The notes beneath the pieces were generated by a model. That model made no database searches, was not told where the DNA came from, and worked only from the letters and a program-made list of their open reading frames with translations. This document shows positions 43,924-56,349 of a stretch of DNA of 64,000 nucleotides, in pieces. Each line of letters begins with the position of its first letter. Positions within the stretch are counted from its first letter, which is position 1. The translations under genes were made by a program, and so were the position numbers. Where the stretch lies: positions 672,001 through 736,000 of the forward strand of contig JALDAJ010000001.1 of the NCBI GenBank assembly GCA_022729235.1, written 5' to 3'. Origin of the DNA: Candidatus Nanohalarchaeota archaeon. GTDB taxonomy: Archaea; Nanohalarchaeota; Nanosalinia; Nanosalinales; Nanosalinaceae.

Positions 43924-44070
43924 CTTGGTCACCCGTGATGTGGCTGTCTGCCGCATTAAATAGGCATTACTGTGGTACAGTGTTACTGTCAAAGTCGGAA
44001 AATCTAGAAATTTATTTGGAAACTCGGAACGTTTTCTGGGCATATCAAATCTGTGGAGAGGAAACTTCGT

Positions 44071-44144
44071 TCCCGACCCCCCGATTTGAACGGGGGACAA
44101 GTCGCTCTACAGGCGACCGCTCTGCCAGACTGAGCTAGGTCGGG
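44071..44144 (-). tRNA. tRNA-Tyr(GTA)
   Basis: C1-G72 CCCGACC acceptor, GTCGC-CT-GTA-GA-GCGAC. Confidence 0.95.
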
Positions 44145-44220
44145 AAATGGCTTTCAGGCGTGATCGACCGGTCAGACCAGAAACCTGTATGGTTTCGACC
44201 TGAGCTAGGTCGGGAAATGG
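44130..44220. repeat. 21-bp direct repeat of the tRNA-Tyr 5' end flanking a hairpin
   Basis: CTGAGCTAGGTCGGGAAATGG at 44130-44150 and 44200-44220. Confidence 0.9.
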
Positions 44221-55487: not shown

Positions 55488-55582
55488 GTGCTAGCTAGTA
55501 ATAGTTGAATGCTTGGAAAGTATTTTTAATGCATTGGCAGAGAGTCCGTGATTTTTATTTGAGGATTTAAAATACTGTTTCT

Positions 55583-56053
55583 GTGGGACTTGAAGAATTA
55601 GAAGAAGATATCAGGCAACTTGAGCAGGATCTTGAAAGTCTTGTTCCCCAGAAGAAGGCAGCTTCGGCTAAACTGTTTCTAGATCAGTTCATGCCTCTCG
55701 CTATACTGATGCTAACTTTGATGATTGCCTTCCATATTTTCATCCCAGTAAGCGATAGCATGGCTGTCGCTGTCAGCTACATGAACGTGGCTATCCTGTT
55801 CTTCTTCAGCGCCCGGTTCACGCTTGCTTTCATGCTGGCGGATTCGCATAAAGGATTCCTCCGTGAACACTGGTTTGACGCGCTGCTTGTTCTACCAGCT
55901 TTTGCATTAGTCAAGGATATACGTCTGCTGCTTGCCCTAGAGTCCAGGACAGAGGAACGCGCTGTTATAGGCACTATTTTCGCGAGGAATACGACGGTTG
56001 CCAGCCAGTTAACCAAGATAATTACCTGGATCAGAAGAATTCTCAGGTTCTAA
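55583..56053 (+). CDS. Membrane protein (ion-channel S1-S4-like)
   Basis: TM helices, FLREHWFDALLVLP. Confidence 0.6.
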   Translation: MGLEELEEDIRQLEQDLESLVPQKKAASAKLFLDQFMPLAILMLTLMIAFHIFIPVSDSMAVAVSYMNVAILFFFSARFTLAFMLADSHKGFLREHWFDALLVLPAFALVKDIRLLLALESRTEERAVIGTIFARNTTVASQLTKIITWIRRILRF

Positions 56054-56056
56054 AAA

Positions 56057-56240
56057 CATATCTCTGATATGGGTCCAACGGGATTTGAGACGAAAACAAG
56101 TTTTCTTAGTCAAATCACGTTTAACCAGCACGAAGTGATGGGCCCAACGGGATTTGAATTCGAAGAAGCAAGTTCTTCTGCAATCAAATCCCGGGAGAAA
56201 GCATATCTTTGATATGGGCCCAACGGGATTTGAACCCGCG
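56057..56240. repeat. Tandem copies of the tRNA-Lys 3' end separated by unique hairpins
   Basis: ATGGG(T/C)CCAACGGGATTTGA at 56069, 56138 and 56214. Confidence 0.92.
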
Positions 56241-56349
56241 ACGCCCGGCTTTCTTTGAAGCTTGGCTGACGCCTTGCTTCTAGGTCCTCGTCCCTTGCGG
56301 GACTTGAGGCTTAAAAGGCCGGTGCTCTGCCAGACTGAGCTATGGGCCC
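56215..56349 (-). tRNA. tRNA-Lys(TTT) with 61-nt intron (56251-56311) at 37/38
   Basis: GGGCCCA acceptor; CCGGC-CT-TTT-A[intron]A-GCCGG; CTTT/AAAG BHB helix. Confidence 0.9.

Follow-up and report, generated by a model that had tools for sequence, protein, structure and literature searches.

Cargo-less 65-90 bp units at the 3' ends of archaeal tRNA genes: candidate cassettes matched to their target tRNA

Duplications of tRNA 3' ends are usually taken as the scars of large islands. Short inverted-pair hairpins that are dispersed in non-coding DNA and patchy in occurrence are known as REP, BIME, and REPIN elements with their RAYT proteins, and the units described here are alike in these respects. 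They also resemble the tRNA-targeting elements Bb423phi2 and 689b-1, Bifidobacterium tRNA-Met prophages which, in the available part of their description (PMC6109161), duplicate the 3' end of a tRNA and restore the gene, are about 18 kb long, and carry their own integrase. Integron attC sites, as the accessible sections of PMC2727003 present them, are imperfect palindromes with an outer stem, an unpaired spacer, an inner stem, and a variable terminal loop; they fold as single strands with a strand bias, and in their arrays neighbouring units join at the outer stem. Our units share each of these features. A last likeness is to the Haloquadratum SMRs and the 52-bp PATEs made of terminal sequences only, very short, palindromic, enzyme-less mobile DNA of halophilic archaea (accessible portion of PMC3119063). 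At the locus analyzed here, a tRNA 3' duplication was combined with a folded site, fixed and matched to its target, and with zero cargo, and this combination was present in two archaeal groups.

The array behind tRNA-Lys and its local history

The window (the whole stretch analyzed, 64,000 nucleotides, positions 672001-736000) lies in a host genome (G000) that is a single 1.03-Mb contig with an acidic proteome. An initial annotation had described a mini-array of tRNA-Lys 3' ends, and its reading of the letters was reproduced. The 20-mer ATGGG(T/C)CCAACGGGATTTGA occurred at 56069, 56138, and 56214 with spacings of 69 and 76 bp, the hairpins CGAAAAC-AA-GTTTTCT and CGAAGAA-GCAAG-TTCTTCT (b2 and b1 in Table 1) were each followed by TCAAATC, and CATATCT(C/T)TGAT stood ahead of copies 1 and 3. 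The copy at 56214, held to be the real tRNA end, was indeed the 3' end of the minus-strand tRNA-Lys(UUU). The chance of such a 20-mer with at most one mismatch inside 150 bp was about 1e-8, and the array stretch had a much stronger RNA fold than its shuffles (z -3.6 and -4.6). The proposed pairing of TCAAATC with GATTTGA was present, but TCAAATC turned out to terminate an antisense arm of 17-20 nt that had been missed. Also overlooked were CATATC-NNN-GATATG and CAC-GAA-GTG, which are triloop hairpins in their own right. Starting at T55 on the tRNA strand, a unit consisted of the tail (positions 55-73), a triloop hairpin (a), an arm ending in GATTTGA, and a second hairpin (b), followed by the next tail. 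The term "repeat-spacer" was misleading, as the spacers were palindromes of one family and G000 held no Cas1; a CRISPR array and a casposon were rejected on the same grounds.

Table 1. Positions of the tRNA gene, the units, and their parts in the window
Feature	Position	Strand	Remarks
tRNA-Lys(UUU), host target	56215..56349	-	Rfam RF00005; ARAGORN with introns; T55-A73 = 56233-56215
61-nt tRNA-Lys intron	56251..56311	-	at 37/38; several relatives without the intron
Unit 1, 76 bp from T55	56158..56233	-	tRNA tail, hairpin a1, antisense arm, hairpin b1
Hairpin a1	56202..56216	-	CATATC-AAA-GATATG; includes C72 and A73
Antisense arm 1	56184..56203	-	end = GGGATTTGA; tRNA positions 55-64 paired, 0 mismatches
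Hairpin b1	56161..56179	-	AGAAGAA-CTTGC-TTCTTCG; of the genome-wide AGAA..TTCG family
Unit 2, 69 bp from T55	56089..56157	-	tail copy 2 (56157-56139), hairpin a2, antisense arm, hairpin b2
Hairpin a2	56129..56137	+	CAC-GAA-GTG; C-GNA-G mini-hairpin
Antisense arm 2	56110..56128	-	pairs 55-61, 62 mismatched, pairs 63-66, bubble 67-70, pairs near 71-73
Hairpin b2	56091..56106	-	AGAAAAC-TT-GTTTTCG
Distal copy	56069..56088	-	tRNA positions 55-73(+1), single change G69A; by analogy with the G050 unit copied between loci, probably the original chromosomal end
Hairpin a3	56052..56071	-	CATATC-AGA-GATATG, then T run; putative third-unit remnant or terminator
156-aa membrane protein	55583..56053	+	end abuts the array; outside the units; family searches without any match

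A 51-kb short-read contig covered 55200-56900 with 0 differences; as it probably came from the source sample, it was not an independent sample. Short-read assemblies do break on short repeats at unit loci, but this separate assembly agreed with the window base for base, and it is extremely improbable that the array is an assembly artefact or the decayed remains of a single local tandem duplication. The two window units were 56% alike (median over all unit pairs, 57%), and each was closer to a unit elsewhere. Unit 1 had its closest relative in the Trp unit of G000 (79%), and unit 2 had an 83% counterpart behind the tRNA-Lys of another genus (G007). The pair therefore did not arise by a single tandem duplication. 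The orthologous Lys locus had a unit in 5 of 18 relatives and none in the other 13, one of which ended 21 bp past the gene. Together with the dissimilarity of the units, these empty loci supported the iterative integration at the tRNA 3' end that had been proposed from the window. Among the short-read contigs, which drop rare variants, there was no joint inside the array, no circle junction, and no empty allele. The Lys-Ile gap (window 55488-56214; loci L002-L017) was a variable slot. In two relatives it was as short as 30 and 51 bp; nine others had 620-1337 bp there, and different genes.

Distribution and movement of the units

When tRNA 3' flanks were surveyed for the same architecture, as the initial annotation had suggested, the build was found behind tRNA genes of many kinds and not behind tRNA-Lys alone. 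Positions 64-73 were copied nearby at 11 of the 29 tRNA genes scored in G000 (6 of the 35 ARAGORN genes fell outside the scoring, and the Asp case was without an antisense arm). Close relatives of unit 1 lay behind both tRNA-Trp and tRNA-Phe of G000, and the hairpin a1 sequence was also found 3' of other tRNA types in this genome and its relatives. Within the phylum the pattern matched 38 of 70 genomes, representing 24 of 32 genera (reversed-pattern control, 0). An evenly drawn sample of the haloarchaeal class, whose centre genome was picked because it carried the pattern, gave 22 matching genomes among 151 (control, 0). Parsing of the phylum sites yielded 107 units, of which 5 poor parses were removed before all counts and 102 were kept; their length was 65-90 bp with a median of 76. 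Minimal units were shorter, with just 1-7 nt separating A73 and GATTTGA. A scan of all species returned at least 116 matches. Among the matches listed, 92 lay behind a called tRNA, 79 of these having a distal copy at least 16/19 identical, and the hosts were many Halobacteriales with single Methanosarcinales, Micrarchaeota, Woesearchaeota, and bacterial cases. At one haloarchaeal locus (L551) the tail was copied four times in succession. Units with an inverted T-loop, some in tandem, were also seen behind bacterial tRNA-Asp and tRNA-Pro genes (L286, L338, L356, L296, L335, L325, and L269) of Acidimicrobiia, Alpha- and Gammaproteobacteria, and Treponema. The literature search, which covered few subscription journals, found no title or abstract opening for this architecture.

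The presence of units was patchy, both within genera and between orthologous loci. The nearest neighbour of a unit belonged to the same 3'-end class for 48 of 103 units and to another class for 55, with about 6.5% of pairs expected to be the same; classes were defined by the 3' sequence itself because ARAGORN names were partly wrong for intron-bearing genes. Units were therefore both inherited with their locus and moved between tRNA types. One such movement was visible in genome G050, in which an Arg-type unit of 88 bp, carrying positions 63-73 of the Arg tail, lay behind tRNA-Arg(UCG) and also inside the tRNA-Pro(CGG) array, where it was followed by a Pro tail; the Pro array of the sister genome G012 was without the Arg-type unit. 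The only stretch common to donor and recipient was 13 bp of the T-arm. The unit thus travels with its own tail, the donor is retained, and the junction falls in 51-63. We quote the junction as 55-63 given the start of the window copies. This is a single event, and the contigs break in the repeated unit, so that loci were paired by synteny with G012. A junction 3' of position 70, considered for L102 and L075, was dropped after G050, both loci also fitting a distal copy that is the older end. L102 itself is a tRNA-Phe(GAA) whose acceptor stem is Ile-like on either strand and whose distal copy has the usual Phe end.

Identical or nearly identical units occurred at two different tRNA genes in G005, G015, G003, G067, G039, and G040. 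Gene conversion could also explain the paired isoacceptor units of these six genomes, and it belongs to the main alternative to mobile cassettes, an alternative that we consider rather unlikely. This alternative is enzyme-free: the hairpins of the genome-wide family would stall replication, with the units copied and the arm perfected by template switching at microhomology or by conversion of one tRNA tail to another. It is favoured by isoacceptor genes with a common unit, which often share upstream variable-arm sequence as well, and a two-ended switch on 13 bp could give the G050 product. Quasi-palindrome correction, moreover, is a known process, and no recombinase tracked the units. What argues against it is an unchanging layout (inverted T-loop, short spacer, inner stem, T-loop) that was maintained across both archaeal groups, whose inner sequences are unrelated, and the orientation of hairpin b, which was constant.

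Hairpin b belonged to a wider family of about 60 sites in G000, located in tRNA introns, on both tRNA flanks, and at gene junctions. Most of these sites were without a long direct repeat, which again favours copying between tRNA tails with no enzyme. One exact form occurred in 44 of 70 genomes (control, 0), mostly those that carry units. Direct repeats of 12-21 bp after hairpin b were found solely at tRNA ends, one of them the 5' end of tRNA-Tyr, and two gene junctions had direct repeats of 10-11 bp. For tRNA-Tyr (21 bp), tRNA-Leu(GAG), and tRNA-Ser(UGA), a second copy of the 5' end stood on the opposite strand, separated from the first by hairpin b (window 44069-44200; G000 931192 and 590884). 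At G000 gene junctions such as 583059, 487884, 605428, and 61414, hairpin b gave a ribosome-binding-like GGTG right before the start codon. A doublet of two hairpins, an insert of another kind, sat inside the T-loop of the distal copy at G000 Ser(GGA), Ser(UGA), Ser(CGA), and the Pro(UGG) distal site, and at L423 and L426; copies therefore serve as fresh targets. At tRNA-Pro(GGG) (about 555600) and tRNA-Pro(UGG) (about 159600) of G000, two-gene modules lay between tRNA 3'-end copies at +853, +897, and +3105; judged by eye, we take these modules to resemble RelE-type and nucleotidyltransferase-HEPN toxin-antitoxin pairs.

Target matching, folding, and the search for an enzyme

The antisense arm was compared with its own tRNA and with other tRNAs. 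At positions 63-66 it formed 2.81 of 4 Watson-Crick pairs with its own tRNA and 2.09±0.07 with others (n=102), and the maximum of 2000 permutations was 2.33; as the units are related and not independent, the permutation figures overstate the significance. The effect was seen over many different 63-66 words, and haloarchaeal units (n=32) gave 2.69 versus 2.10±0.13. At 71-73 the values were 1.27 of 3 pairs versus 0.86, and at 67-70 they were 0.75 of 4 versus 0.85, not above chance. In the Trp unit the arm paired T64, a base left unpaired by the 5' T-stem strand of the tRNA itself, and the arm is therefore not a copy of that strand. The arm sequence follows that of the tRNA behind which it lies. 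The bubble at 67-70 was never filled, whereas correction alone would tend to fill it, which further weakens an origin by template switching without an enzyme.

Folded as closed circles, the units formed dumbbells. For the window units 0 to 1 of 200 shuffles folded equally well, and 94 of 102 units had z below -2; the antisense strand had the lower circle energy in 65 units and the sense strand in 33. Hairpin-a loops were triloops in 37 of 49 cases. GNA or ANA was present on one strand in 34 of 37 hairpin-a triloops and 24 of 32 hairpin-b triloops, versus 65 of 246 in the shuffled genome, and C-G closure was present in 27 of 32 hairpin-b triloops versus 55 of 246. In nanohaloarchaea the strand with GNA was the tRNA-antisense one in 33 cases and the sense one in 5. 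Of 33 haloarchaeal units, 20 had GA-NN-GNA-NN-GA on the sense strand, each of the four bases occurring in the middle, and 0 had it on the opposite strand, so that the strand bias was opposite between the two groups. Loops of d(GNA) closed by C:G are unusually stable in DNA, according to the accessible text of PMC3201870. The loops of the units are mostly DNA-type triloops, and the fold looks like one of DNA.

The initial annotation had also proposed a host RNA device, in which RNase Z or the CCA-adding enzyme could make small RNAs from tRNA-like 3' minihelices; in a variant of this reading, the trailer would steer pre-tRNA folding and termination. The units do lie on the transcribed strand of the tRNA, the distal copy equalled the tRNA end exactly in 69 of 99 units, and a T run followed the last hairpin. 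In the minimum-energy fold of the pre-tRNA, the acceptor 5' strand paired with copy 2 and not with its own tail, a modelled pairing that may affect pre-tRNA processing. The structure, however, did not bear out a minihelix: in all folds the T-loop was buried in the arm duplex, an acceptor 5' strand was lacking, and the triloops were of the DNA type. The patchy presence of units, and an Arg tail in a Pro array with no obvious RNA purpose, also count against such a device, which we consider quite unlikely.

Profile searches of G000 found no Y1 transposase, RVT_1 reverse transcriptase, Cas1, or IntI; for IntI (TIGR02249), both G000 recombinases scored far under the cut-off. A Y2 search of G000 had no match, and its control also matched nowhere. 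Two families, PF00589 and PF01797, were profiled over the phylum genomes and neither tracked the units: G015, a one-contig genome, had units and 0 PF00589 matches, G017 had 5 matches and 0 units, and Y1 transposase occurred in 4 of 70 genomes. A broken tyrosine recombinase gene was seen directly 3' of a three-unit tRNA-Lys(CUU) array (L423).

The site motifs GTTC and TTGAT resemble IS91 and IS605 sites. An HUH nuclease of the IS91, IS200, or RAYT kind, nicking the T-loop GTTC beside a subterminal hairpin, might be the mover of the same units. Such a mover would fit the signature of single-strand folding, the GT ahead of 92 of 102 distal copies, and the T after GATTTG(A) in 59 of 102 units. It is nevertheless very unlikely, given the rarity of Y1 transposase and its absence from G000, the lack of a Y2 match there (with the reservation about the control), and the window, where the copies were without GTTC.

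None of 16 extra sites and none of 4 haloarchaeal loci contained a cargo-bearing archaeal form, and viral, phage, and plasmid sets contained no cargo-bearing version of the units. One of these sets gave 122 matches, 10 with an inner stem and none unit-like, and in another the matches were limited to 37-bp tRNA ends. A viral analogue with cargo was present, however: an inverted tRNA-Met 3' half of about 26 bp adjoined the att core in 71 of 116 viral loci, including L135, L138, L153, L175, L176, and L183, which are Bifidobacterium-type tRNA-Met phages with short integrases. Four integrases beside inverted-copy att sites belonged to PF00589 and were 275-297 aa long. At L183 short integrases flanked the att site on both sides. 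The viral loci match the Bifidobacterium tRNA-Met prophages described in PMC6109161, the available text of which does not mention the inverted tRNA 3' half beside the core that we saw on the related viral contigs.

Taking these results together, we consider it evenly balanced that the units are a family of cargo-less 65-90 bp cassettes, likely moving as folded single-stranded circles and likely inserted by T-loop recombination. The best supported part of this reading is that cargo-less cassettes enter at the T-loop with their own tail. A unit closed to a circle is predicted to form a dumbbell, mostly more stable on the strand opposite the tRNA. The circle would supply its own tRNA tail, so that the gene would stay whole and the old tail would be displaced downstream, and repeated entry would build mixed arrays. 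The arm would likely be re-matched to a new tRNA through template switching or selection for the fold. Least certain are the antisense arm and hairpin b as a possible attC-type folded site, and the catalyst, which might be a tyrosine recombinase acting in trans, encoded by a virus or integrative element with sites in T-loops. We infer the single-stranded circle and the tyrosine recombinase from the dumbbell fold, the attC-like geometry (as available in PMC2727003), and the tRNA-Met phage analogue (as available in PMC6109161). Counting against the cassettes are the failure of the searches above to find an enzyme, a circle junction, or a cargo-bearing archaeal form, the attC triplet that is not kept, the strand bias that is reversed in haloarchaea, and the minimal units, which pair 55-62 only, short for a recombinase arm. 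A broader proposal, possible but doubtful, is an undescribed archaeal single-strand recombination in which the T-loop receives dumbbell circles of 65-90 nt, the smallest integrative elements, with the arm re-tuned for each tRNA; it would also explain the hairpins in tRNA introns and gene junctions and the inverted T-arms at some phage att sites.

Significance and comparison with known systems

If folded single-stranded circles do recombine at T-loops, integron-like chemistry would reach a universal chromosomal site. The units would then be a very small retargetable insertion device, and would offer a concrete route for extra sequence in archaeal tRNA genes. If the units are instead copied with no enzyme, they would be a clear natural case of microhomology copying among tRNA genes. 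The carriers include cultured haloarchaea, among them strains of Halorubrum, Natrinema, Halobaculum, Halomicrobium, and Halorutilus, and the mechanism is therefore testable.

Several known classes were set aside. GGATTTGA and TCAAATCC could be read as the ends of a MITE, but the G050 unit took positions 63-73 into a foreign array. A bulge-helix-bulge, a K-turn, box C/D, and a primer-binding site were rejected by eye, the bulges and boxes standing in no conserved register. In contrast to REP elements with RAYT, Y1 transposase is absent from G000 and restricted to 4 of 70 genomes, the arm of the unit is built from its target, and the target is duplicated. The SMRs and PATEs are without target duplication and, in the accessible portion of PMC3119063, are not described at tRNA ends. 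Whereas Bb423phi2 and 689b-1 bring their own integrase, the units are gene-free, occur at many tRNA types per genome, and have neither a gene of their own nor a linked integrase that tracks them; beyond the tRNA, they have no sequence link to these elements as given in the available part of PMC6109161.

Relative to attC, the commonest unit spacers were 5 nt ahead of the inner GAA and 4 nt past the inner TTC. Unlike attC, the outer stem of the unit is the tRNA T-loop with its complement, the GTT/AAC R-box is not kept (AAC ends 11 of 102 arms, and the window's own copies are without G53-T54, the GT seen ahead of most distal copies), and the inner stem appears mostly to be without extrahelical bases. 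Unlike in an integron, IntI is missing from G000 and there are no genes, the sole passenger being the tRNA tail. The units work like empty integron cassettes at a tRNA att site, and are members of neither family.
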